64,000 nucleotides of DNA, from contig JAISCX010000029.1 of the NCBI GenBank assembly GCA_031265235.1, positions 19,137 to 83,136 of the forward strand, given 5' to 3'. Source of the stretch: Rickettsiales bacterium (GTDB lineage Bacteria > Pseudomonadota > Alphaproteobacteria > Rs-D84). Below, piece after piece: positions 11,889-47,215 of this stretch. Both the position numbers and the translations under genes were made by a program. The first letter of the stretch is position 1; each line of letters begins with the position of its first letter. The notes beneath the pieces were generated by a model. That model was not told where the DNA came from, made no database searches, and saw nothing but the letters and a program-made list of their open reading frames with translations.

Positions 11889-11921
11889 AAAATCGCCGCA
11901 ACCGCGGCGATTCTTTTTGTA
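11889..11921 (+). terminator. rho-independent terminator after corA
   Basis: AATCGCCGC-AACC-GCGGCGATT followed by CTTTTTG. Confidence 0.6.
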
Positions 11922-12026
11922 AATCAATTAGAGCGTGCCAGATGCGCCGATTAAGGCGGCGGGAGTGTATTGAACATACACGACCAAAGCTTTAATCGGT
12001 GCAGATGGTGCGTTATAATTGATTTA
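11920..12026. repeat. 107-bp imperfect palindromic element (copy X) forming the 3' end of the downstream cysteine-rich gene
   Basis: Perfect 11-bp terminal inverted repeats TAAATCAATTA / TAATTGATTTA. Central hairpin GTGTAT-TGAAC-ATACAC at the exact midpoint. Internal CAGATGCGCC boxes. The minus-strand TAA stop of the 12024..14627 gene lies inside the terminal repeat. Confidence 0.8.
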
Positions 12027-14627
12027 CATCGGGATGTCTTTGCAACTTTCGTCAGGCTTTTCTTCGGTGCATTCCATTCCGCGGCTGTCCCAAAGCCCCA
12101 AGAATCCGCGGCTGCCCTTGGTCTTGCAGTTTTTGCGAATGACCAATGTGCAGTAATGACAGTTTCGGTCTTTGCGGTTGAATATGGACCACATTTCTTT
12201 CGTGCCGCCTTCGAATTCAACCTTGTGATGATCGGATGACAACATTCCGATTGCCTTGACCGATGCATCCGCAATCATGCCCGCCGGATTTAGCGTCAAG
12301 ATCGCGCCCGCCGCGCCCAGCGCCGTACTCGTCGCGCCACCATCACTGCCGCCGGCAGCAGCACCGCTTTTTGTTTCCATTTTCGCACCGCCAAGTTTTT
12401 CAGACGAATGCGTTCCGCCAGCCGCGATAGACGCATTTGACACACCTGCGATTTCAAGAACTATGGCATACGGAATGCTGATCACACCTACGAAGTCGGA
12501 CGCCGCTATCCCTTGGGCGGAACCGTTGGTCGCCGGCAGCTTGTTGCACATCAAATTGGCAACGTCCGTGCTGGCGCTCTTGGTTGCTTCTGCCATCAAT
12601 TCATTGAACTTTTTATTATAATTATCCGTAGCCGCACGAATTGCGGACATCGCGATTGCCATCTTGATTTGATTCAACAGATTTGGGAATCTTCCCTTTG
12701 TTGAACCGCCGCCTTCTTTTATCTGGGACAAATCGCGACCGGTAATGCAATATTGAATCTTTGGATCTTGTTCGATCATATCGATCGCCGTATTTATCTT
12801 GCCCTGGATACTTTCCATTTCATAGCGCACATTATCTATGACGCTGGCGTATTCTGCCGGCACGCCCAAAGCGTCCACCTTTGCGATATAGTCTTGAATG
12901 TCAATCTTTCCGGGGGCAAGCGTTATCTCTTGACCGCTTGCATCCTTTACTTTGCTTTGTCCGTTGCCAACCTTTATCTGTCCGAAAGACAACATTCCGG
13001 TTATGCTGTATATTCCGCCGCGTTTTTGACTATTAAGCGACGACGTGCCGATGTTTTCGTCCGTCGCGAACTTGTCGCAGTCCGTAGTGCTGTCGCAGAT
13101 TTCCATCATTTTCGTGTTTACAATGTTCTGGCAATTTTCCAACGCCGAATTATCCACGTTCAAATAAAATCCCATCAGCATATTGTCTATATCGGACATG
13201 GAAAAATCTTTGTTTCCCTGCTTGCACACGACCAGCTTGTCCACCGGGCACATTTCATGCATATATTTATAATCCATGCCGATACAGTTCATAAAATCAG
13301 ATCCGCAGCGGTCGTCGGATGTAAAGCATTCCTTTACTTCCTCGGTGCAGCGATCCACGCGCATCGCGGCCAGCTTGTCCTTTACATATCCCCAGATTAA
13401 CGGTTCCATCCGTTCGCACGGGTCAATCTGATTCTTGCAGAAACTGCGCGCCATGTCCGGACGCGACAGGCATGAATCCATGGTGTCCACGCCCTTACCG
13501 ACGATATCGTCCTTGCACGCCTTTTGTATACAGCCGGAAATATCGGTCAGGCACGACTGGCGCATATTGGATTCAATGTTCAATTCCGCAGTCTTTAATT
13601 CCGGCGCGATATCGCGGATAAAGTCGGGCCACACCTGGTCCCTTACCGCGACGCATTGATCCAGAATACTTTCGCACATATTGCGTTTGGAATCCAACAT
13701 CTCGCGCGTGTTCGTCGAAATGCCATACTTGTCTATGTGCTCTACCTTTGTTTTCGCGGTGCTGACTGTCGCGGCCTGCATGTTTTCTGCCGCAACATAT
13801 TTCGCACAGCGCGACCAGTCTTCGCCACAGACATCCGGTCCCATCATGCATTTTTTAAAGCCAATCAAACAAGTCCCGCGGTCAAGTTTGTTCGATTCTT
13901 CAAATGACGCCAGACGCGCGTCGCGCACGTCTTTCTGGGCGCTTGCCAATTCCGCATCCGCCTTGCGCGATAATTCCTTTACCGCATTGTCAAAAGCCTT
14001 GCAGTCGTTTTTAACCTGGGTCGCGTAAAGCTGGGTCAGCATCATCTGATCTTTTTCGCAGGAATCCGGCATTTGATCAAGGCAAAGTCCGCGCGCGGCA
14101 TTGTAAAGCACAACCCCTGTCTTGCCGGCAACCGATTCCACGCTGCTCCAAATATCTTCGTTGTCGTCGTTCCAAAGGGACAACAAATCCAGCTTTTTTT
14201 GTTCCTTATTTGCCTTATTTTCTTTTTTTTCCAAACTGATCACATTGCCCTGGGCGTCGTATTGGCGATCCCCGCCAAAGACTATGTCTGCCTTTGCGCC
14301 GACCTGGATTTTTTCAACCTCTATCGTGCGCAGATTTTCGGCGTTTTTAAGCTGTGTCTCGATATCGGAAAGAACTTTTTCATACTTTACATTCTCGTCG
14401 CTGCATGCGCATGCACCGCCGGATTCATTGTCGGAAGTGCAGAACGAATCCATGCATCCGAAATAATTGTCGTAACATTCTTGGGAAAACAGTCCCGTTG
14501 GCTGGACTTTCTGGCGTATGGTCGTGCCGCTTGCGATAACGGACGTTTTCTTTGCGGTAACAGGGGCCGCATGCGCGTCAAAAATAAGCAATGAAAAAGA
14601 AATTGCGACAAATAATATTTTCTTCAT
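12024..14627 (-). CDS. secreted cysteine-rich protein, paralog family member P1 (867 aa)
   Basis: Signal peptide MKKILFVAISFSLLIFDAHA. Family motifs are ECYDNYFGCMDSFC...CACS, CLIGFKKCMMGPDVCGEDWSRC and CESILDQCVAV. A C-terminal Gly-rich hydrophobic (glycine-zipper) segment is followed by RNCHYC and a ...ESCKDIPM tail. Confidence 0.8.
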   Translation of the reverse strand: MKKILFVAISFSLLIFDAHAAPVTAKKTSVIASGTTIRQKVQPTGLFSQECYDNYFGCMDSFCTSDNESGGACACSDENVKYEKVLSDIETQLKNAENLRTIEVEKIQVGAKADIVFGGDRQYDAQGNVISLEKKENKANKEQKKLDLLSLWNDDNEDIWSSVESVAGKTGVVLYNAARGLCLDQMPDSCEKDQMMLTQLYATQVKNDCKAFDNAVKELSRKADAELASAQKDVRDARLASFEESNKLDRGTCLIGFKKCMMGPDVCGEDWSRCAKYVAAENMQAATVSTAKTKVEHIDKYGISTNTREMLDSKRNMCESILDQCVAVRDQVWPDFIRDIAPELKTAELNIESNMRQSCLTDISGCIQKACKDDIVGKGVDTMDSCLSRPDMARSFCKNQIDPCERMEPLIWGYVKDKLAAMRVDRCTEEVKECFTSDDRCGSDFMNCIGMDYKYMHEMCPVDKLVVCKQGNKDFSMSDIDNMLMGFYLNVDNSALENCQNIVNTKMMEICDSTTDCDKFATDENIGTSSLNSQKRGGIYSITGMLSFGQIKVGNGQSKVKDASGQEITLAPGKIDIQDYIAKVDALGVPAEYASVIDNVRYEMESIQGKINTAIDMIEQDPKIQYCITGRDLSQIKEGGGSTKGRFPNLLNQIKMAIAMSAIRAATDNYNKKFNELMAEATKSASTDVANLMCNKLPATNGSAQGIAASDFVGVISIPYAIVLEIAGVSNASIAAGGTHSSEKLGGAKMETKSGAAAGGSDGGATSTALGAAGAILTLNPAGMIADASVKAIGMLSSDHHKVEFEGGTKEMWSIFNRKDRNCHYCTLVIRKNCKTKGSRGFLGLWDSRGMECTEEKPDESCKDIPM

Positions 14628-14644
14628 TTTTTCTCTCTCTCCTA

Positions 14645-14751
14645 AAAATCAATCAGGATGGTGTAGATGCGTGGATTCGCAGACCCGACGTGTATTGGAC
14701 ATACACGAGGGTCGGTGAATGCGCGCAGATGCGCCATTATGATTGATTTTA
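14645..14751. repeat. 107-bp imperfect palindromic element (copy Y) forming the 3' end of the second cysteine-rich gene
   Basis: Terminal inverted repeats AAAATCAATCA / TGATTGATTTT (11/11), central GTGTAT-TGGAC-ATACAC hairpin at the midpoint, TAGATGCG / CAGATGCGCC boxes. The TAA stop of the 14749..16791 gene sits in the terminal repeat. Same length as copy X and alignable with it. Confidence 0.8.
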
Positions 14752-16791
14752 CATATTTACGTCCTCGCAGGATTCAAGTTCCTGGCAGAATTCTTTCGTG
14801 CCGCCGGACATCATTCCCATCAGCCCCCCGCCAACGCCGCCGACAATCGCGCCGATCGCCGTGCCCCATCCCGGCGTTACCATTGTTCCGGCCGACGCGC
14901 CCGCGGCCAGTCCGCCGGCCGCACCCTTCATCGCCGACGCGCCTTTTTCTTCGCCGCCGACTTCGCATACTTTTTGAACGCGGCAGATGTGACAGTTGCG
15001 CAAAGACGGTTCAAAGTGAACGCTTGCGATCCAGACATTGTCCGTATCTTTGTGATCCGATTTCATTTTTTCGCACGCGGCTTTGGCATCATTCAAATCT
15101 TCTTTGCGGGCCAATTCCACCACTTTTGCCTGATACGCGCGCTGGGCGCGGCCCTCGGCCGAAACCTTGGCCAGCAATTTTGCCGTGGTGAACACGTTCT
15201 TGCCCAGTCCGTTGCCGCTGCACTGCGTCACAGTCGTATCTTTTTCAAACTGTTTGAAGAAATTGTCCACTTCCTTGTCCGCATTCGCGCGCCAATCCAC
15301 GATGGCAGAAGACTTTTTCATGGCCGAAATCTGATCGTCCGACGGCAAGCATGACATATCCGTTCCGCATACGCGGCCCAGCGCGTCGCTGAAATAGTTG
15401 ATGCAGCCCTGCATCATCTGGTAATCCATTTGCAGCAATGTGCTGGACACGATCACGTCAAACTGCGTCTGACCCTTGCAGCTTGGGAACATGTTCTGTG
15501 GGCACAGTGCGACGATATCGCGCGGCTTTTTGCCAACGCACGCAGGATTGGTGAAATTCGCGCCACACTTTTCCTGCAAGCATTTGTCGATGTCGTTCTG
15601 GCAGAACCGCACGCGCAGGAATCCAAGCTTGTCATTAATGGATGTTTTGATTCCAGGCACCAAAGTATTGCATTCGTTTATGACCGGACACACGCCGGCG
15701 GCGATGTTCACATTATCCAGACATTGTGAATTCGTCGTGGGCGAACAAGAATCTTCCAAACATGCCTGGATCCGTGCAAAGCATGTTCCGCGACGGTTTT
15801 TGTCCGCGTATTCCGCGGCGTCCGCCAGAACCATCTTGGATTCCGCGGTCCAGTCTTCCAAAACATACTTTTTAACGGCCATGCATTGGTCAAGCACGTT
15901 GTCGCATGCATTCGCGCGCCGGGCCAAAAGTTCCGCGTCAAGACAGTTTTCAAAATTCGCGCCGCATCCGCCCTTGTCCGCGATGCAGTTTTTATACGTG
16001 ATCAGGCATTCGCCGCGATTATATTTGTTGGTGGTGTCAAGCATTTCGAATCTTGCCGCGCGCACGGCCTTGTCCGCGGCGGTTTTGTTGCCCGACGCAA
16101 TTTTCTTTTGGTCGTCCAAGAATGTCGTGAATGATTTGCAGTCTGCGGTAATCTGCCGCTCATAAAGCATTTCTTCCATTTTCGCGTCTTTGCCGCATGC
16201 TTTTAAATGGCGGCTGCATGATTCATACGCCATCGCGTAAAGATCGTCGCCAATGTCCATATCTTCGTCCAGCGATACGCCGTCGCCGCCACCGTAAACC
16301 CAAGACATAAAGTCAATGCCGCTTTTTTTCGCTTTCTCGCTTTGCCCGAATACCAGCACGGCTTTCGCGCCCAGCTTTTCGCGCTCGACGCCTTCGCCGA
16401 ACAATTTTTCGGCGGCGGCCTGGATATCGTTGATTTCTTTAATCAGCGGCTTGGAACGCGCGATATTGCCGGAACAGCTGCAGCGTTCACCTTCTGACGC
16501 GTCCATCAGACAGAACTGATCCATACAGTCGCGGTATGGCGCGCGGCATTCTTCACTGCTGCCGGTCACCGGTTCTTCGGCTTTTTTACCGCTGAAATCC
16601 GGTTTTATTTCTTGTTTCTCTTCCTCGTTCTGCGAATGCATGCTTACCCCCGCGACAACCGTGGTCACACGATTGTCCGCAATAGCAGGACGGACGCCGA
16701 CGCGCGCGGTATCGGTATTGTCCGCAGCGGACGCACAAAAAAACAGTAATACGGAAAACGCCGGCAGCATTGCCGTTATTGATCTCTTCAT
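14749..16791 (-). CDS. secreted cysteine-rich protein, paralog family member P2 (680 aa)
   Basis: Signal peptide MKRSITAMLPAFSVLLFFCASA. Family motifs are ECRAPYRDCMDQFC...CSCSG, CLITYKNCIADKGGCGANFENC and CDNVLDQCMAV. The C-terminus carries RNCHIC, a Gly-zipper segment and a ...ESCEDVNM tail. Colinear with P1 over most of its length. Confidence 0.8.
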   Translation of the reverse strand: MKRSITAMLPAFSVLLFFCASAADNTDTARVGVRPAIADNRVTTVVAGVSMHSQNEEEKQEIKPDFSGKKAEEPVTGSSEECRAPYRDCMDQFCLMDASEGERCSCSGNIARSKPLIKEINDIQAAAEKLFGEGVEREKLGAKAVLVFGQSEKAKKSGIDFMSWVYGGGDGVSLDEDMDIGDDLYAMAYESCSRHLKACGKDAKMEEMLYERQITADCKSFTTFLDDQKKIASGNKTAADKAVRAARFEMLDTTNKYNRGECLITYKNCIADKGGCGANFENCLDAELLARRANACDNVLDQCMAVKKYVLEDWTAESKMVLADAAEYADKNRRGTCFARIQACLEDSCSPTTNSQCLDNVNIAAGVCPVINECNTLVPGIKTSINDKLGFLRVRFCQNDIDKCLQEKCGANFTNPACVGKKPRDIVALCPQNMFPSCKGQTQFDVIVSSTLLQMDYQMMQGCINYFSDALGRVCGTDMSCLPSDDQISAMKKSSAIVDWRANADKEVDNFFKQFEKDTTVTQCSGNGLGKNVFTTAKLLAKVSAEGRAQRAYQAKVVELARKEDLNDAKAACEKMKSDHKDTDNVWIASVHFEPSLRNCHICRVQKVCEVGGEEKGASAMKGAAGGLAAGASAGTMVTPGWGTAIGAIVGGVGGGLMGMMSGGTKEFCQELESCEDVNM

Positions 16792-16916: not shown

Positions 16917-16945
16917 AAAAATCCGCCGTCCGGCGGATTTTTTTA
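16917..16945. terminator. bidirectional rho-independent terminator downstream of infA
   Basis: AAAATCCGCCGTCCGGCGGATTTTTTT. The identical 28-nt module recurs at 25499. Confidence 0.7.
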
Positions 16946-17369: not shown

Positions 17370-20162
17370 ATGAGAAAAATTCTTATCTTTTTATCTGCCA
17401 TGTCGATTTCCGCGCATTGTCTGGCCGCGGCGCAAAATCCGCGCGCCACGACCGCCCAGCCGCGCGCGGCCGCGACCGTGGCGACAACTGCGCGCAATGC
17501 CACGGAACGCCCGGCGACAGCGGCCGTTTCCGCACGAAGCGCGGCCGTTGCCACACGCGCCGCGGCAACGGCGGCGCCAACCAACGCCAGATCTGCGAAA
17601 AACAATGCGACCGCACCCCGCGCGGCAACAAACAGCGCCGTGCGTACCGCACCTCACGCTGCACGCGAAGTTGTCGGAACCAACATCGCGGCGCGCGCGG
17701 CGTTGGTTCCGACAACTTCGACAATGGGCGACGGGTATAACGCATGCCGCGATGTTTACTTTACATGCATGGATCAATTCTGCGCGGCCAAAGACGACGT
17801 GTACCGCCGCTGCATGTGTTCCGGACGCTTGGATGAAATCCGCGAAAAAGAACGAAAGCTGAAACAATCCGCCGGACTTTTGCAAGACTTTGCGGAATAC
17901 AATATCGATGCGATTACCAAAACCGCCCAGGAAGTCGCGGCAATGCTGAAAGCAACGCCGGGCGAATACGCCGCGGCGACCGGGCAAAAATACGACAAAT
18001 CCGACGCCACGAAAAATCTTGCCGGAATTTCAAGCGTTTTGAATAATGCGAAATCTCAGTCCCTGTCCACCAAAGGCACCCTTGACATCGCCGGAAACAT
18101 CAATGCGATCTGGTCTTCTTCGGACTTGATAGGCAGCGGCGATATCGCGAATCTAGAAGGCAGGAAACTTTACGAACAGGTTCACGCCCAATGCGCGTCC
18201 ATATCGGCTGACGCATGCCCGCGCACCCCAACAATGAACATGGTCGTCAGCGCATACGGCATGTATATAGAACAGGACTGCAACGTAATATCCGCCGCAC
18301 TGGAAGGGAAAAGAATCCAAACCGCGGGCGACGTCCGCAAGACAGAACGCGTGATGAGCGAGGCGCGCCTGGAAAATTACAACGTCCACAATTCCGCGGC
18401 AGTCAACGAATGCATCGCCCAGGTTCGCAAAGATATCACCGAAGATCCCGCGTGCGGCCCGGAATTCGTCCATTGTCTGGATGTCACCGGCATGTATTTG
18501 GTATATGCCACGGGGGAACCGATTTACAGCCCCAGCTTTTTCAATCTTGAAAATCAAATTTCGCTGACCGGCGATACTCTAAGCAATTCGGCAAACAGGC
18601 TTTTCGTGTCGCTGTTGGAAAAGAACAAGGAATTCGCAAAGCGCGGGCTGGACACTTGCCGCGACATATCGGCGGACGTATGGGATGAATTCATGCGCCA
18701 GGCTTTGGTCGAAATATACCAGGGCCAGCAAAACCGAATCCGTGCGGTCAAAGATGAATGCATATCCGTCGTTAACGAATGCTATGACGCGCAGACGCAA
18801 AAGTTAAAGGACTTTTCAAACATGGACCGCCAATCCTTGCTGGGCCAAACTATCGAAACAGCCGAAGCGATGTGCAAGACAAAGCTTGACGCGTGTTCCA
18901 ATCTTTACGGCGGCGCAAGCGGATTGAAAGAACTGACGGATTTTGTGTTCAACGTAGGCAGCTTGAAAGTATCCGAATCTTGCGAGAAATATCTGGACCA
19001 ATACATTCGCAACATCTGCACTTTAAAGTCTGACACATTGCACGGATTCCCGTATGACTGCCGCATTCGCAAGCCGGGTTCGTATGTCTGCGAACAGTCC
19101 GGCGCATCATCGGATGATTGCAGCAAGGATTCCGTATACGCCCAGCTGGCGAAATACGCGCGTGAAAACTGTGTCCGGCCCAGTGTCCAGCCAGAAGATC
19201 CGCTGCCGTCCGTCGTCCAAACCGCGGTCAACCGCATTATGGATACCACGAAACGCGAAATGGAAAAATTGCTGCGCGCGGAATGCAAAAACGTATCCGG
19301 CGATTGGACGAATGATTTGGATAAACGTCCCAAAGACGATTCCACTGAAATTTTATCCGTATCGTTCGCGCTTGATGTTAATGCGGACCATGACTGGGGC
19401 ATATGTTTGGCGAACAGCTGCGACCTGGCCAATTCCGGCGAGAGATATACGGATGAATACGGCATACAGCAATGCTGTGCAAATACGGATTCGTATGACC
19501 CTGCTTCAAAGACATGCGTCGAAAAAGATGTAGCCATTTGCATCAGTTACGGCGACCATATCATAGTGGACACCAGTTGTTCGACACAGGGGAGACACGG
19601 CGACGACCATGGATGCGTGGTAAAAGATTGCAGATGCGATGATGGTTATCAGCTAGACGTTCCGGAAGAACCAAATACACCAGTGTCTTGCATACTGCGG
19701 CAATGTCCATCCGGATCGGACGATGCCACAGATTGCCCGGCCCCCAATGGTGCCAACGGGGAACTGGCCGGATGCGTGAAAAAAGATTGCAAATGCCAAA
19801 GCGATCACATAATAGATATTACCAACGGTGTGCGGGCATGCAAGAAAGTGGAGTGTGGAAGCGCATCATCATTTGATGCAACTTGCACGGAAGCGAATGG
19901 GGGAGATGAATACCTGCTCGGGGGCTGTTTCAAACAGTTTTGCAGATGCGACACAGATGCATATAAACAAAATAATTATAATACATGTCGCGCCACAGAT
20001 TGCCCCGACCACTCTCATGCCGAACAAGCTTGTTTGTCTAGCCCCGGAACAACAACTAATTGTCTTACTGACAAAAATGGTTGTAAATGCGATGATGGAT
20101 ACTCGGTAATGCTCCCTGATGGAGACTATGGATATCGCATGGTATGCCAATCTGATGTTTAA
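17370..20162 (+). CDS. secreted cysteine-rich protein, paralog family member P3 (930 aa), with N-terminal Ala/Thr/Arg-rich low-complexity region and C-terminal Cys-rich tandem modules
   Basis: Signal peptide MRKILIFLSAMSISAHCLAAA, then about 100 aa of A/T/R-rich low complexity. Family motifs are NACRDVYFTCMDQFC...CMCSG, ACGPEFVHC and CKTKLDAC. The C-terminal 250 aa carry repeated CxC...DGYQLD / GCVKKDCKC / GCKCDDGY modules. Confidence 0.8.
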   Translation: MRKILIFLSAMSISAHCLAAAQNPRATTAQPRAAATVATTARNATERPATAAVSARSAAVATRAAATAAPTNARSAKNNATAPRAATNSAVRTAPHAAREVVGTNIAARAALVPTTSTMGDGYNACRDVYFTCMDQFCAAKDDVYRRCMCSGRLDEIREKERKLKQSAGLLQDFAEYNIDAITKTAQEVAAMLKATPGEYAAATGQKYDKSDATKNLAGISSVLNNAKSQSLSTKGTLDIAGNINAIWSSSDLIGSGDIANLEGRKLYEQVHAQCASISADACPRTPTMNMVVSAYGMYIEQDCNVISAALEGKRIQTAGDVRKTERVMSEARLENYNVHNSAAVNECIAQVRKDITEDPACGPEFVHCLDVTGMYLVYATGEPIYSPSFFNLENQISLTGDTLSNSANRLFVSLLEKNKEFAKRGLDTCRDISADVWDEFMRQALVEIYQGQQNRIRAVKDECISVVNECYDAQTQKLKDFSNMDRQSLLGQTIETAEAMCKTKLDACSNLYGGASGLKELTDFVFNVGSLKVSESCEKYLDQYIRNICTLKSDTLHGFPYDCRIRKPGSYVCEQSGASSDDCSKDSVYAQLAKYARENCVRPSVQPEDPLPSVVQTAVNRIMDTTKREMEKLLRAECKNVSGDWTNDLDKRPKDDSTEILSVSFALDVNADHDWGICLANSCDLANSGERYTDEYGIQQCCANTDSYDPASKTCVEKDVAICISYGDHIIVDTSCSTQGRHGDDHGCVVKDCRCDDGYQLDVPEEPNTPVSCILRQCPSGSDDATDCPAPNGANGELAGCVKKDCKCQSDHIIDITNGVRACKKVECGSASSFDATCTEANGGDEYLLGGCFKQFCRCDTDAYKQNNYNTCRATDCPDHSHAEQACLSSPGTTTNCLTDKNGCKCDDGYSVMLPDGDYGYRMVCQSDV

Positions 20163-25173: not shown

Positions 25174-25500
25174 ATGTTTTCCGTTCTTCTTACATTGCTT
25201 ATAATTATCGCCGTTATGATGATCGGCGTGATATTATTGCAAAAATCCGAAGGTTCCGGCATGTCAGGCAGCAGCGCCGCCAGCATGTTCGGCGGCGCGC
25301 TGACGGGCGCATCGGCGGGAAACTTTCTGACCCGGGCGACCGCTGTTCTGGCCACTATATTTTTTATCTTGTGCGCGGCGCTGGCGATCGTGGTTGCCAA
25401 AACGAACAAAGCGGCCCAAGAATCCGAATTGCGCCAGGAACTGGTCGCGCCATCACAGACCGCGCCGATCCCCGCCCCGGTAACAGTTCCGGAAAATTAA
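25174..25500 (+). CDS. secG: preprotein translocase subunit SecG
   Basis: MFSVLLTLLIIIAVMMIGVILLQKSEGSG...FGG is the SecG consensus with two TM helices and Gly-rich loops. Confidence 0.8.
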   Translation: MFSVLLTLLIIIAVMMIGVILLQKSEGSGMSGSSAASMFGGALTGASAGNFLTRATAVLATIFFILCAALAIVVAKTNKAAQESELRQELVAPSQTAPIPAPVTVPEN

Positions 25501-25527
25501 AATCCGCCGTCCGGCGGATTTTTTTAA
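25499..25527. terminator. bidirectional rho-independent terminator (secG and ankyrin operon)
   Basis: AAAATCCGCCGTCCGGCGGATTTTTTT, identical to the module at 16917. Confidence 0.7.
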
Positions 25528-36488: not shown

Positions 36489-36517
36489 AAATAAAATCCG
36501 GTTTTCACCGGATTTCT

Positions 36518-37423
36518 CTAGAACCTATACATAAAGCCAAGCTTTATCATTGGATACATCTTTAACTTGTCCAGTTCATCGTTCGCATCCTTTAATGCGA
36601 TGTTTTGTGCGTTGTTAAATTCCGTCTCTAAAGTTCCGGAAAGATCGTCGCTGATATTTTCCCACGCGCCGCTTTTCCATACTTCTAAGTACTCATTAAC
36701 CGGCACGTTCAATGACAACGCCGCGGTCTTGTTGGTAAATACTATCCCGGCATCCATATAAATCTTTATTCCCCAGAACAGCCCCAGGTCAAACCCGCCG
36801 CCCAAATACGGACCGCTGTATTTCCAATCAGCCTTGGCCGTGCCATTTATATCGCCGCCGTTATAACGGTATTCTGTTCCGTTAAGTTCAAATTCCATGG
36901 GTCCCCCCGGGACGCCATTCGCTTTGCCCGATAATTTCGAAAAAAAGCTGGTATTGCCGGTTATATATCCACCAGAAATACGCAGACCGCCCAAAAACCA
37001 AGTATTTCCAAAAGGGTAAAAATCAACCAGCGCACCAAAATGCTGCATGGAAAGATCAATGTCGCTGATGGTCAGGTTATCTATTTCAAGTCCGCCCGAT
37101 ATTGCGGAATTCATCGCGGAATTTATTGTTGATTTTAATGGCGCGGCTGTTGCGAAATCAAATCTGACACCCAAACGTTTCCACCAGAATGATTCAAAAT
37201 CCTTGTTCGCATACCCGATCCAACCGTTTATTCCCGAAGTTGCGCTGGCCCCCAGTCCCAATTGCACGCCGCGCGGGAATTTTATCTTTGGGTTCACAGG
37301 TTCGCTTTTTGTTTCTATTACATCTATATCTGCCGCAAACGAATCGTTTGCATCGTCTGCGATTGCCGGCGCATTGCCCAGTAAAACAGCCACCGCTGCT
37401 AGAAATATACAAAATTTTTTCAT
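36518..37423 (-). CDS. outer-membrane beta-barrel protein
   Basis: Start taken at MKKFCIFLAAVAVLLGNAPAIA (signal peptide). Alternating amphipathic strands. C-terminal ...KLGFMYRF with terminal Phe, typical of an OMP barrel signature. Confidence 0.6.
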   Translation of the reverse strand: MKKFCIFLAAVAVLLGNAPAIADDANDSFAADIDVIETKSEPVNPKIKFPRGVQLGLGASATSGINGWIGYANKDFESFWWKRLGVRFDFATAAPLKSTINSAMNSAISGGLEIDNLTISDIDLSMQHFGALVDFYPFGNTWFLGGLRISGGYITGNTSFFSKLSGKANGVPGGPMEFELNGTEYRYNGGDINGTAKADWKYSGPYLGGGFDLGLFWGIKIYMDAGIVFTNKTAALSLNVPVNEYLEVWKSGAWENISDDLSGTLETEFNNAQNIALKDANDELDKLKMYPMIKLGFMYRF

Positions 37424-37485: not shown

Positions 37486-37512
37486 AAAAACCGCCTTTCG
37501 GCGGATTTTTCA
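37486..37512 (-). terminator. rho-independent terminator downstream of rpsU
   Basis: AAACCGCCTTTCGGCGGATTTTT hairpin with a T-run on the minus strand. Confidence 0.6.
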
Positions 37513-37618
37513 AAAATCAATTTAGATGAGATGAATGCACAGTTTTGACCAAAGAGAGCGTATTGAACATACGTGATTGGCGGTCAAAACAATCAGGCAT
37601 CCATAGAAATCGATTTTT

Positions 37619-37825
37619 CTAGAAGCCAAAGACCATTCTTTGCTTGGACTGTCTTTTCTTTTCTTTGCGGACGGCTTCTTCTTTCAGTCGTTTGCGCATT
37701 GTCGTCGGCTTTTCATAACGCTGGCGTTCCTTGGACTCGCGATACAGGCCCTCTTTCTGGGATTTTCTTTTCGCCACGCGCAATGCTTGCTCTACATTAT
37801 TGTCGCGCACTAAAACTTTGACCAT
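37619..37825 (-). CDS. rpsU: 30S ribosomal protein S21
   Basis: MVKVLVRDNNVEQALRVAKRKSQKEGLYRESKERQRYEKPTTMRKRLKEEAVRK is the S21 consensus. Start taken at the second Met. Confidence 0.85.
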   Translation of the reverse strand: MVKVLVRDNNVEQALRVAKRKSQKEGLYRESKERQRYEKPTTMRKRLKEEAVRKEKKRQSKQRMVFGF

Positions 37826-42723: not shown

Positions 42724-43350
42724 ATGGAACCTACTTATGTATCAGCATTCAAGGGTATTGGCAATAACGCGATGTATGTTGGAAGCGATGGGAATATTTA
42801 TGAACATAGCGGCGGAACAATTGCGTGGCGTAATAATAATCCGGGGAATATGCGGGCGTATAAATCTGTATTTAATCGTGGCGCAATCGGAACCGGCGGT
42901 GGCGCAACCGAAAAAGCGCCGGGGTTCGCAATATTTCCCGATGCAAACACTGGTTGGAACGCGATGGTTGATTTGTTGTCAGAGCCTATGTATCAAAATC
43001 TTACTATTGAAGAAGCCATCAATAAATATTCCCCGCCAGAAGAAAACAATGTGGAAAATTATCTGAAATCTTTGGAAAATCAAACCGGGTTTCCGCGCAT
43101 TACGCCAATGAATAATCTGTCAAAAGATAATTTGTTAAAACTTGCCAAAGCTATGAAAGCGCACGAAGGGAATAAACCGGGCAAAAAGCGGCTTGTTCCA
43201 AAAAATGAAAAATATATGTGGGTTACTGAAGGCGACGACAAAGTTCGTCCAGAACACGAAGCACTGGACGGCGAAGTGCGGTCATGGTATGATAGTCCGC
43301 ATCCGGGCGAAGATTTTGGATGCAGATGTCATGCTGAAGCAGTTGATTAG
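42724..43350 (+). CDS. phage-derived protein with C-terminal Mu F / SPP1 gp7-type motif
   Basis: The C-terminus RPEHEALDGEVRSWYDSPHPGEDFGCRCHAE matches the conserved R-x-x-H-x-x-L-D-G ... P-x-H-P-x-C-R-C block of phage head-morphogenesis (Mu F-like) domains. The N-terminal 150 aa (WRNNNPGNMR, GFAIFPDANTGWNAM) are unassigned. Confidence 0.5.
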   Translation: MEPTYVSAFKGIGNNAMYVGSDGNIYEHSGGTIAWRNNNPGNMRAYKSVFNRGAIGTGGGATEKAPGFAIFPDANTGWNAMVDLLSEPMYQNLTIEEAINKYSPPEENNVENYLKSLENQTGFPRITPMNNLSKDNLLKLAKAMKAHEGNKPGKKRLVPKNEKYMWVTEGDDKVRPEHEALDGEVRSWYDSPHPGEDFGCRCHAEAVD

Positions 43351-44074: not shown

Positions 44075-45175
44075 TTATGCGGCCTTTTTCATGCCGCGTT
44101 TTGATTCGCGCGCATATTTGCGCAGATCGTCAATCGGGACCAGCGATCCGTCGCGCTTTTCCGCAGACCAATAATCCCACCCGTTAAACGATGCGCATTG
44201 CTGAACGCGCGCCGCCATTACGTGAATCGAAGCCTTGCCCAGCAATGTATGCCGCAGATGGCCGTCGCTGGTGATCATGACGCGGTCGCCACGTCTGCCG
44301 ACCAGCGTCTGTCCAACATGCAACAGACCGCCCGCAATCAATTCCATAAACGCAACCCGGACTTCTTCGCGCTTTGCCGCGACTTCTATTTCCGAAAGAT
44401 CGATCGGATTCGTGGCATTTATGCGCGACAGCGCGCCTTTGATATATGATCGCTCTTTCTCTATTCCTATCCAATTTCTGGACAGTTCGCGCGCGACCGC
44501 GCCGGTTGTGCCGGAACCAAAGAACGGATCCAGTATCACATCGCCCACTTTCGTACAGGACAGTATCACCCGCCGCAATAAATCCGCAGGCTTTTGCGTT
44601 GTGTGTAAAGATTTGCCATTATCGTCTTTCAATCGTTCGCCGCCCAGACATATGTCGATTCCGCCCCAATCGCTGCGCATCTGTTTGCCGCCGTTGAATT
44701 TTTTCATGGTGTCGTAATTAAAGGTATATTTTCCCGTCTTTTGCGGGGTCGCCCAGATCAGCGTCTCGTGCGCGTTCGTAAACCGCGTTCCGCGAAAATT
44801 CGGCATAGGATTGGTCTTGACCCATACTATATCGTTCAGAATCCAGAATCCCATATCCTGCATAATCGCGCCCACTTTGAAAATATTATGATAGCTGCCG
44901 ATTACCCACATCGATCCTGTGGGTTTCAAGACGCGTTTGCATTCGGAAAGCCATGCCCGGGTGAAATCGTCGTATTCCGCGCTGGACTCAAACCAGTCCC
45001 ATCCGTCGCGAACGGCCCTGGCCGCGGTCTGGTCTTCGGGCCTATACAGGGTTTTGGCCCCCAGCCGCAGGTTATAAGGCGGATCGGCGAATATGGCGTC
45101 AACGGAATTGTCCGGCAATTCCTTTATCCGTTCCACGCAATCACCTTGCAAAATGGTGTTTATATATTCCCTCAT
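44075..45175 (-). CDS. ccrM: CcrM-type beta-class N6-adenine DNA methyltransferase
   Basis: Motif IV IFADPPYNL near the N-terminus and motif I DPFFGSGTTGAVA near the C-terminus (beta-class order). C-terminal extension and 366-aa length as in Caulobacter CcrM. Confidence 0.85.
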   Translation of the reverse strand: MREYINTILQGDCVERIKELPDNSVDAIFADPPYNLRLGAKTLYRPEDQTAARAVRDGWDWFESSAEYDDFTRAWLSECKRVLKPTGSMWVIGSYHNIFKVGAIMQDMGFWILNDIVWVKTNPMPNFRGTRFTNAHETLIWATPQKTGKYTFNYDTMKKFNGGKQMRSDWGGIDICLGGERLKDDNGKSLHTTQKPADLLRRVILSCTKVGDVILDPFFGSGTTGAVARELSRNWIGIEKERSYIKGALSRINATNPIDLSEIEVAAKREEVRVAFMELIAGGLLHVGQTLVGRRGDRVMITSDGHLRHTLLGKASIHVMAARVQQCASFNGWDYWSAEKRDGSLVPIDDLRKYARESKRGMKKAA

Positions 45176-45517: not shown

Positions 45518-47215
45518 ATGAAAAAAGTCAGTCTATTAGCTATTATTGCGTTGCTTGCTTCCGCACCTGGTGTAAGTAGTGCCGATACTCTTGCTCTTAC
45601 ATCAGATGGGTCGTCTGTATCGGGGGACTCGGGAATTGATGCCCACGCTGTTTCAGATTTACTATCTGCAACAACCATAAGCGGATTCGGTATTTCCGAT
45701 GCTTATACAAAAACAGAAGTTAATACTAAATTTGATAATTTGGGCGATTTAGCCAGTAAGGATCTTATTGACTCTTCGGATATCACTGACGGTGCAGTTA
45801 CTGCCAACAAGCTTGGAGCAAGCTCTGTAACGACAACGAAAATTGACAACAACGCGGTCACTGCTGACAAACTTGCAGCGAACTCTGTAACGGAAGCGAA
45901 GATCAACGACGGTGCGGTTACGACAGCAAAGATCAACGACGGCGCGGTCACTAACTATAAGATTGCTGACGACTCTATCTCGGAAACGAAGATCCAAGGC
46001 AGCGCGGTTACGACCGACAAGCTTGCAGATAACTCTGTAACGGAAGCAAAGATCAACGACGGTGCGGTCACGACAGCAAAGATTGACAATAGTGCTGTCA
46101 CTGCTGACAAACTTGCAGCGAACTCTGTAACGGAAGCGAAGATCAACGACGGCGCAGTCACGACAGCGAAGATCAACGACGGTGCGGTCACGACTGATAA
46201 ACTCGTTGACGGTGCAGTCACTAATTATAAGATTGCAGACGACTCTATCTCGGAAACGAAGATCCAGGGCAGCGCGGTTACGACCGACAAGCTTGCAGAT
46301 AACTCTATCTCGACAGCGAAGATCCAGGATAATGCAGTTGAATTTGGTAAGCTGTCGTCGGATGTTCAAAACACCTTGAACCTTGTCGGCAATGGAGACT
46401 TTACTTCCGCCACTAATATTGCGTCATCTTCCACCACTCTTACCGATGCAATTCTTAACCTTGACACCACGATCGGCGATATGACGACAATCAGCGGGGC
46501 CCATCATGCGGCACTGGGCAACGACACTATTGCCGGCGCCATTGCCGCCATCGATACCAGGATTGACGATGTCATACGCCGCGACGGCAACTATGGATCC
46601 GGTTCCAACCTGATACACATCGGTCAGAATTCAATAGTTCTTGATGAAACCACCGGCGATATGTATTTTGACGGAACCGGCAGCGATACGCTCGCCATCC
46701 GGACGGTATCCGCGAAAGACGCATCATTCCAAGATGTCGCGACAACGGACATCACCGGCGACGGCATATACACCAGCACGTATAACATCGCGGCGACCGA
46801 TACCTTGACCGCGGCCGCCAGCAAACTTGACGCCACGATCGGTGATATGACGACGCTGCGCAACCAGATCAACAGCGGAACGCTGGTCGGTTCTCTGAAC
46901 AATATGTATGATTATGCCGAAAGCAATATCATCCGTTTGGATGGGCGCATTGATTCCGTAGAAGCACGCCTGGACGACATGACCACAGAAATGCGTTCGA
47001 TGTTCGCCGGCGCGGCGGCTATGTCGGCATTGGTTCCTAATGCGCGTGCAAAGGGAAACACCCAGATTTCGTTCGGCGCGGGAACATATCGCGACCAATA
47101 CGGGATCGCGGCCGGCGCGTTCCATTACGTGAACGACAACATTCTTTTGAATGCTGGCGCAGCATATAGCAATGACAACTTTACAGGTCGCGTTGGTGTA
47201 ACAATCGGCTGGTAA
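45518..47215 (+). CDS. trimeric autotransporter adhesin (YadA-like C-terminal anchor) with decapeptide-repeat stalk
   Basis: Signal peptide MKKVSLLAIIALLASAPGVSSA. 19 tandem 10-aa repeats (xxxAVTxxKI/L). C-terminus ...MSALVPNARAKGNTQISFGAGTYRDQYGIAAGAFHYVNDNILLNAGAAYSNDNFTGRVGVTIGW matches the YadA membrane-anchor consensus, ending in W. Confidence 0.8.
   Translation: MKKVSLLAIIALLASAPGVSSADTLALTSDGSSVSGDSGIDAHAVSDLLSATTISGFGISDAYTKTEVNTKFDNLGDLASKDLIDSSDITDGAVTANKLGASSVTTTKIDNNAVTADKLAANSVTEAKINDGAVTTAKINDGAVTNYKIADDSISETKIQGSAVTTDKLADNSVTEAKINDGAVTTAKIDNSAVTADKLAANSVTEAKINDGAVTTAKINDGAVTTDKLVDGAVTNYKIADDSISETKIQGSAVTTDKLADNSISTAKIQDNAVEFGKLSSDVQNTLNLVGNGDFTSATNIASSSTTLTDAILNLDTTIGDMTTISGAHHAALGNDTIAGAIAAIDTRIDDVIRRDGNYGSGSNLIHIGQNSIVLDETTGDMYFDGTGSDTLAIRTVSAKDASFQDVATTDITGDGIYTSTYNIAATDTLTAAASKLDATIGDMTTLRNQINSGTLVGSLNNMYDYAESNIIRLDGRIDSVEARLDDMTTEMRSMFAGAAAMSALVPNARAKGNTQISFGAGTYRDQYGIAAGAFHYVNDNILLNAGAAYSNDNFTGRVGVTIGW
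45779..46349 (+). repeat. 30-bp tandem repeat array (about 19 units, with a higher-order duplication of about 285 bp)
   Basis: Reiterated AACTCTGTAACGGAAGCGAAGATCAACGACGGTGCGGTCACGACAGC-type units. Generates artefactual minus-strand ORFs. Confidence 0.85.

Follow-up and report, generated by a model that had tools for sequence, protein, structure and literature searches.

Several families of short palindromic repeats have been described at the 3' ends of bacterial genes. REPINs, the elements of the REP/REPIN-RAYT systems (Pseudomonas; BIMEs of E. coli), are extragenic hairpins of ~100 nt with conserved ends and a variable interior that is kept paired by compensatory changes (PMC3116915); they are located at gene 3' ends inside transcripts, are not flanked by a target-site duplication and can reach hundreds of copies per genome. 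In Coxiella, QMITE1 and QMITE2 are non-coding palindromic repeats which abut or supply stop codons, overlap gene 3' ends by 1-50 bp, lie mainly in 3'UTRs and are conserved between strains (PMC5896051); they carry direct repeats of 2-11 nt. ERIC (enterobacteria) and Correia/NEMIS (Neisseria) elements are imperfect palindromes of ~105-155 bp, co-transcribed with flanking genes as long RNA hairpins; within 3'UTRs, Correia hairpins are cut by RNase III and ERIC hairpins by RNase E, with an effect that depends on orientation (PMC10969869). Correia elements have, in addition, a TA duplication, promoters and IHF sites. Finally, Rickettsia palindromic elements (RPEs) are palindromes of ~100-150 bp that characteristically insert in frame in ORFs and are translated.

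The stretch of DNA analysed here (64,000 nucleotides, hereafter the window) contains an imperfect palindrome, designated Y, between two genes, P2 and P1. Y is probably one copy of a dispersed family of non-coding palindromes of ~105 bp, of the REP/REPIN, ERIC, Correia or QMITE kind. The family was previously undescribed, and its hosts are uncultured gut-associated alphaproteobacteria. Its likeness to the systems listed above can be delimited as follows: (i) it shares with REPINs the size, the extragenic position at gene 3' ends inside transcripts, the conserved ends, the compensated variable interior and the absence of a target-site duplication, but its arms are not self-complementary and lack GTAG, its apex is conserved too, no RAYT is encoded in the 64-kb window, and its density, apparently modest (about one copy per 20-40 kb), looks far below that of REPINs; (ii) like the QMITEs, it is non-coding and palindromic, is located mainly in 3'UTRs, abuts or supplies stop codons and is conserved between strains, but it has no direct repeats and no sequence relationship with them, is much shorter than QMITE1, lacks a GTAG REP core and shows strict polarity; (iii) it resembles ERIC and Correia elements in length, imperfect symmetry and presumed co-transcription; these belong to other sequence families and other phyla, and single-polarity docking at stop codons is reported for neither of them; (iv) it shares with RPEs the size, the occurrence in Rickettsiales-labelled genomes and the coexistence with coding sequence, but is set apart by its insertion behaviour, none of the 13 copies identified being inside an ORF. 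As in MITEs, there are terminal inverted repeats, a length between 50 and 500 bp, no coding capacity, a dispersed distribution and three pairs of empty and filled sites; a consistent flanking target-site duplication is lacking. Membership of a named family fails, because there is no REP/GTAG end, no target-site duplication, no in-frame insertion and no similarity to the families tested. The element is otherwise an ordinary kind of bacterial repeat and not a new recombination system.

Table 1. Copies of the element in the window, their parts and their neighbours (positions are those of the window).
Feature	Position	Strand	Remarks
Element Y, imperfect palindrome of ~105 nt	14645..14751	-	P2-P1 intercistronic space; the minus strand is that of the flanking genes and of the presumed transcript
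Outer arm of Y, AAAATCAATCA	14645..14655		nine A-T and two G-C pairs; partner 14740-14750
Outer arm of Y, TGATTGATTTT	14740..14750		overlaps the P2 stop codon (14749-14751)
5' TAGATG box of Y	14664..14669	+	forms with 14726-14731 a tandem G·A/A·G 2x2 internal loop
3' CAGATG box of Y	14726..14731	+	partner 14664-14669
Apical hairpin of Y, GTGTAT-TGGAC-ATACAC	14690..14706		loop centred on midpoint 14698
P2, 680-aa Cys-rich secreted protein	14749..16791	-	stop codon in Y
P1 ribosome binding site, GGAGAGAGAGA	14632-14642		2 nt past Y
P1, 867-aa paralog of P2	12024..14627	-	stop codon in X
Element X	11918..12028	-	between P1 stop codon (12024-12026) and bidirectional terminator
Terminator hairpin with flanking A and T tracts	11891..11912		common to corA (+) and P1 (-); just beyond X
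Element Z, third copy, degenerate	37512..37618	-	between rpsU stop and terminator 37491-37504
rpsU (ribosomal protein S21)	37619..37825	-	abutted by Z; stop TAG 37619-37621
Bidirectional intrinsic terminator	37491..37504		just beyond Z

In a repeat search of the 64 kb, X and Y ranked as the longest and the third longest inverted repeats of the window, respectively. The original prediction had ascribed to Y perfect terminal repeats, a hairpin at the exact midpoint and flanking boxes, and all these sequence details hold (Table 1). The left-arm box TAGATGCG is at 14664-14671 and the right-arm box CAGATGCGCC at 14726-14735. It had also placed the TAA of the gene within the outer repeat; the stop codon of P2 (14749-14751, minus strand, in the reading ATG TAA AAT CAA TCA) does indeed fall within the right arm of Y. 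The plus strand is the better-folding one and carries the purine mismatches, while the same pair of boxes read on the mRNA strand gives a UC/UC loop. When both strands of X and Y were folded as RNA, z values ranged from -6.8 to -12.4 and none of 200 shuffles folded as well. For Y, the predicted RNA energy is -65 kcal/mol on the strand antisense to the gene vs -44.6 kcal/mol on the other strand, and the corresponding DNA energies are -36 and -25.7.

Other copies were retrieved by pattern scans and then by a covariance model. A scan of GTDB genomes for the central hairpin with short end repeats gave six matches, of which one, in a MAG labelled Rickettsiales (L005), is a true homolog; the other five are A/T-rich chance matches and not members of the family. 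Metagenomes scanned with the end-repeat pattern yielded 58 stretches, namely five palindromic members (L022, L034, L038, L041 and L063) and 53 chance matches, and two scans of viral sequences returned nothing relevant. The model (R1) was built from eight copies (X, Y, L005 and the five metagenome members), which it scores at 80-122 bits (111 for Y, 104 for X); the unrelated loci used as negatives, 383 kb in total and including the chance-match stretches, do not exceed 24 bits. Run with filters off, it detected exactly one more copy in the window, Z (53.5 bits on the plus strand vs 16.6 on the minus strand), and it also matched four copies (L078, L082, L066, L073) in loci that had been fetched for other reasons, which makes five copies found by the model alone and 13 copies overall, three in the window and ten elsewhere. 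Decayed or variant-ended copies score 29-54 bits. The ten outside copies come from termite-gut, human-gut and other metagenome contigs or MAGs labelled Rickettsiales or Alphaproteobacteria by NCBI. In Rfam 15, the element had no match at the gathering threshold; matches overlapping it at E<=10 were far below gathering scores and chance-like, the stronger of these weak ones falling on the neighbouring terminator. A literature search with the motifs of the element found nothing relevant.

Pairwise identity is 69% between X and Y, 75% between X and L022 and 77% between Y and L063, and divergence among copies amounts to 25-45%. Copies of one genome are no more alike than copies of different genomes, so there is no sign of recent bursts. 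The proteins P1 and P2, for comparison, are 26% identical. Two copies (L066 3208-3310; L073 649-750) form a variant subfamily that shares the apex (CCTCGTGTATGTTCAATACACGTCGGGG) but not the ends, which read GTTCGTTTTGC...CACAACGAATC and are entirely different. Conservation is thus higher at the apex than at the termini, an unusual pattern for a MITE recognised by a transposase. A second alignment restricted to the apex aligned poorly and no model was made from it. At L038 (1658-1860) there are 1.8 tandem copies, a full copy followed by GTTATGTGGATTA and then by a copy without the left arm and with an identical interior; recent duplication or faulty assembly could account for this.

From its base upwards, the stem starts with 10 bp rich in A/T, which a 1x1 mismatch separates from the next 9 bp; above these come the 2x2 loop CAGATG/CAGATG, ~14 bp of variable stem and a GA/GA loop, with the conserved apical hairpin on top. 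The apical motif GTA...TAC..GA is invariant in the 12 copies aligned and constitutes the most conserved module; the terminal inverted repeats measure 10-13 bp. It had been proposed from the first two copies that the palindrome itself is under selection, and that covariation should be examined once more copies were at hand. Further copies were found and they covary: in a structure-blind MAFFT alignment, paired cells reach 90.7% and double-sided changes are found at 21 of the 38 pairs, a level attained by none of 500 shuffles, while slid controls give 7-10 such pairs. The stem is therefore kept through compensatory change. Y aligns with X block by block, as described originally, and the two are homologous, with invariant blocks; the difference between their ends (ATTA versus ATCA), thought to be compensatory, is a true double-sided change, the pair being U-A in seven copies and C-G in Y. 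Another double compensatory change is present in L082, in its terminal arms (AAATCACG/CGTGATTT). A coding role was also considered: short reading frames across the element are not conserved between copies, and a small ORF starting from CAGATG was discarded, its peptides varying in length and sequence among copies.

The position of the copies relative to genes is highly regular. Twelve of the 13 are tied to a gene's stop codon: they start 0-5 nt past it, overlap with it or provide it themselves (TAA at +10). All five copies found by the model alone, without a search pattern, are among these 12; L063 is the ambiguous thirteenth copy. Polarity is constant in the 12, the strand that reads AAATCAATTAG...TTATAATTGATTT always being the one opposite the gene. 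The docked genes are real and unrelated, and encode P1, P2, ribosomal protein S21 in three genomes (Z, L066, L073), ribosomal protein S18 (rpsR; L078), a T2SS ATPase, a DUF2155 protein, a 3'-5' exonuclease, a thioredoxin-reductase-like protein, a probable ketoacyl-ACP synthase and an autotransporter (L082).

Canonical terminators are located beyond X, Z and L082, a ribosome binding site and a start codon follow directly past Y and L022, and the next gene begins ~40-50 nt past L005 and L078. With a terminator or the next cistron beyond the copies, the element would be part of the transcript and not its terminator; as P1 has no room for a promoter of its own, Y must be transcribed with the upstream gene. 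A strong hairpin ending in a U-rich arm, together with a plus strand that folds very stably, could point to an intrinsic terminator or to a small antisense RNA gene. Both are very improbable, however, given the separate terminators past X, Z and L082, the placement of Y, L022 and L078 inside operons just ahead of the next gene, and a stem base that is A/U-rich instead of the G/C-rich stem with U tract of a terminator; on the plus strand, no promoter is present and a terminator stands immediately upstream, and no Rfam family is matched even at E<=10. An internal sigma-70 promoter was also rejected: the right arm contains TATAAT with no conserved -35, and a promoter scan found nothing.

P1 and P2 (12024-16791) are Cys-rich secreted paralogs without a Pfam domain. 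P1 has more than 1300 homologs, the named ones coming from MAGs of Alphaproteobacteria or Rickettsiales, and is 100% identical to a protein from a 'Rickettsiales bacterium' MAG. The P2-P1 pair is syntenic beside infA in all relatives examined (loci L075-L082). P1 and P2 belong to an uncharacterised conserved family of surface or secreted proteins.

Comparison with relatives revealed empty counterparts of the filled sites. Indeed (i) in L075 and L076 only 20-30 nt separate P2 from P1, and the terminator comes immediately after the stop codon of P1, so that both sites filled by Y and X in the window are empty; (ii) the rpsU site is empty in L067 and L070 and filled in the window, L066 and L073; (iii) the rpsR-rplI (S18-L9) site is empty in L080 and filled in L078. 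Among nine loci whose S21 is identical to that of the window, the stop codon is followed directly by a terminator in four, by a GTAG REP-like hairpin in three and by the variant-ended element in two. The adjacency of P2 and P1 is conserved in L075, L076, L078, L079, L080 and L082, mostly without elements. In view of the empty orthologous sites, X and Y are independent later insertions into an existing P2-P1 operon, and are neither relics of gene duplication nor cassette boundaries. Copies turn up in several genomes and at loci that are not related to one another, and relatives have empty orthologous sites; the element has therefore been gained or lost independently of the genes.

These sites bear directly on the original prediction that the succession gene-element-gene-element is cassette-array-like. 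An integron-like attC site, with P2-Y-P1-X as a cassette array, would agree with the imperfect palindrome of ~105 bp after each ORF and overlapping its stop codon, with the two copies on one strand 2.7 kb apart, and with a better-folding strand antisense to the ORF, like attC bottom strands; attC sites are likewise imperfect palindromes that come right after an ORF and in many cases take in its stop codon. This reading nonetheless fails and can hardly be entertained. P2 and P1 are adjacent without elements in L075, L076 and L080, and other copies are scattered after core genes (rpsU, rpsR, and the genes of the T2SS ATPase, the thioredoxin-reductase-like protein and the probable ketoacyl-ACP synthase), which is not cassette behaviour. 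A tyrosine recombinase or integrase had been proposed as something to look for nearby; Pfam scans of ~40 ORFs of the 64-kb window found no integrase, tyrosine recombinase or transposase, but housekeeping families (including FtsH, GAPDH, MiaA, PriA, CorA, ParC, PGK, FtsY, ClpP and ClpX), and neither an integrase nor an attI site is present within the 64 kb. The ends, AAATCAAT/ATTGATTT, do not correspond to the attC cores R'' (RYYYAAC) and R' (GTTRRRY); internal AAC/GTT motifs exist in some copies, being absent from Y and incomplete in X. Finally, the mismatches are symmetric (1x1 and 2x2 loops), with no extrahelical bases or asymmetric spacer. Of the original prediction, the maintenance of the palindrome itself, whether as RNA or as single-stranded DNA, is borne out; a recombination site or cassette array is not supported.

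Other palindromes, unrelated to the family, occupy the same stop-codon sites in some relatives (L068 2417-2450, L072, L074; L077 5850-5930). L068, L072 and L074 have a GTAG REP-like hairpin (TTGTAGGGGCGCGTTTCCACGCGCCCCTACAA) after rpsU, and L077 (5850-5930) has a palindrome of ~75 nt, GACTACCCC...GGGGTAGTC, in the space between P2 and P1. Sites close to stop codons thus appear to be hot spots at which several repeat families insert.

The two strands of the hairpin are not equivalent. All 13 copies fold better as RNA on the strand antisense to the abutting gene, and so do X and Y, the two copies tested, as DNA (-36/-33 vs -26 kcal/mol). On the antisense strand, the non-Watson-Crick positions comprise 82 purine·purine vs 5 pyrimidine·pyrimidine mismatches, and wobbles are G·T in 41 cases vs A·C in 16 (binomial p=0.001). 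About 65 of the 82 purine·purine positions correspond to five conserved G·A sites per copy. A replication-linked composition bias was rejected as the cause, the local plus strand being C- and T-rich and not purine-rich. Antisense RNA is itself unlikely, because on that strand terminators immediately precede X, Z and L082. Judging from sequence and predicted folds, this polarity argues that the mRNA hairpin would not be the structure under strongest selection; either a template-strand DNA hairpin would be selected or copied, or the mRNA would need a weakened hairpin with pyrimidine loops.

The first of these options leads to a reading that is rather unlikely, in which a single-stranded DNA hairpin of the antisense strand would be the selected, active form and the mRNA hairpin a weaker by-product that is tolerated. 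Mobilisation would then be strand-specific, for example by an HUH/Y1 enzyme (RAYT or IS200/IS605-like) or by an attC-like recombinase of folded DNA. The better antisense folding of all copies (of X and Y also as DNA) and the improbability of RNA from that strand are consistent with it; the purine·purine and G·T mismatches in excess are those that a DNA hairpin tolerates best, and the lack of a target-site duplication also fits. Indeed, no consistent duplication was found, TA being present at both ends in only 2-3 of 9 copies examined. By contrast, no Y1/HUH or tyrosine-recombinase gene is encoded in the window, the ends are not REPs (no GTAG, not locally palindromic), and a conserved target tetranucleotide of the IS200/IS605 type was rejected since the flanks vary. 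The polarity also follows the gene in 12 of 12 copies; for ribosomal-protein genes, such a polarity would normally put the favoured strand on the leading-strand template, which is the opposite of IS200/IS605 behaviour. The recurrent G·A sites, moreover, could equally be a motif read in RNA.

Improbable, too, is a distinct class of polar, stop-codon-docking elements, in which a single-stranded template-strand DNA hairpin would be inserted strand-specifically at translation stop sites. Insertion might then proceed by folded-DNA recombination without an integron or by incorporation at the replication fork, and the apical GTA...TAC-GA with the tandem G·A boxes would be the recognition module.

It is distinctly improbable that the element is a non-mobile cis-regulatory RNA of the host, i.e. 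a 3'UTR or intercistronic stem-loop for mRNA stabilisation, processing or termination control, spread only by vertical descent and occasional recombination. A stem compensated despite the divergence between copies, a fixed placement and polarity in transcripts, the low density and the failure to find a mobilising gene would all suit such an RNA. However, the same family past unrelated genes, along with empty orthologous sites, requires insertion events; relatives carry other palindromes at the same sites, as expected of insertion hot spots; and the mismatch polarity disfavours the mRNA strand.

For a dispersed repeat of the REP/REPIN, ERIC, Correia or QMITE kind, which is the preferred explanation, a function could be envisaged as follows. 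The element would be transcribed within the mRNA of the upstream gene, as 3'UTR or intercistronic RNA. The stem-loop would begin at the stop codon, and a terminating ribosome would open no more than its weak A/U base, leaving the G/C-rich upper part folded as a barrier to 3'-exonucleases or as an RNase processing site and thereby setting the relative stability of upstream and downstream cistrons. Termination could also be modulated, as shown for REP, ERIC and Correia elements. With less support, the copies may have been spread in trans by an enzyme encoded elsewhere, and the mismatch polarity suggests that the antisense-strand hairpin, probably as single-stranded DNA, might be the form copied or selected. 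Several observations weigh against the preferred explanation: neither the window nor ~190 kb of related loci showed a transposase, a RAYT or a parent IS sharing the ends of the element, no consistent target-site duplication was found, the density appears modest, there is no sign of recent bursts, the apex is better conserved than the ends, and the mismatch polarity favours pairing on the antisense strand.

This is the first interspersed repeat family described for a poorly known lineage of gut "Rickettsiales" MAGs. The covariance model finds its copies cleanly, and the empty and filled orthologous sites provide a usable marker of genome dynamics. Caution is needed in annotation, as the repeat contributes the last stop-codon bases of several genes, P1 and P2 among them. 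Reports on REP, ERIC or MITE elements do not usually describe docking at stop codons as strict, or a purine/wobble polarity as strong, as those seen here; both features could help to decide between mRNA and single-stranded DNA as the form on which selection of such hairpins acts.

Other repeats and possible traces of mobile DNA were noted in the window and in related loci. A bidirectional terminator hairpin of 28 nt, AAAATCCGCCGTCCGGCGGATTTTTTTA, occurs twice in identical form (16918-16945; 25499-25526), with near-copies at 37486-37513 and 36493-36520. An inverted repeat with 25-nt arms, 92% complementary and separated by a 5-nt spacer (17666-17720), is located within a 930-aa ORF without a Pfam domain (17370-20162). 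Repeats with a 30-nt period (45737-46338; six overlapping 182-nt copies) lie within the ORF 45518-47215, whose terminal YadA-like membrane anchor identifies the product as a repetitive trimeric-autotransporter adhesin. In one relative (L078 12765-14377 and 2740-3502), the P1 ortholog is directly followed by an insertion that comprises an EcoRV-type endonuclease and a D12 methylase, and a VbhA/Fic toxin-antitoxin pair is encoded nearby. In the window, an otherwise housekeeping region holds a phage Mu F-like fragment together with an N6/N4 DNA methylase that carries a RAMA domain (42724-43350; 44075-45175), possibly what is left of a prophage or else a restriction-modification island; a methylase of that type also adjoins rpsU in L068 and L072.
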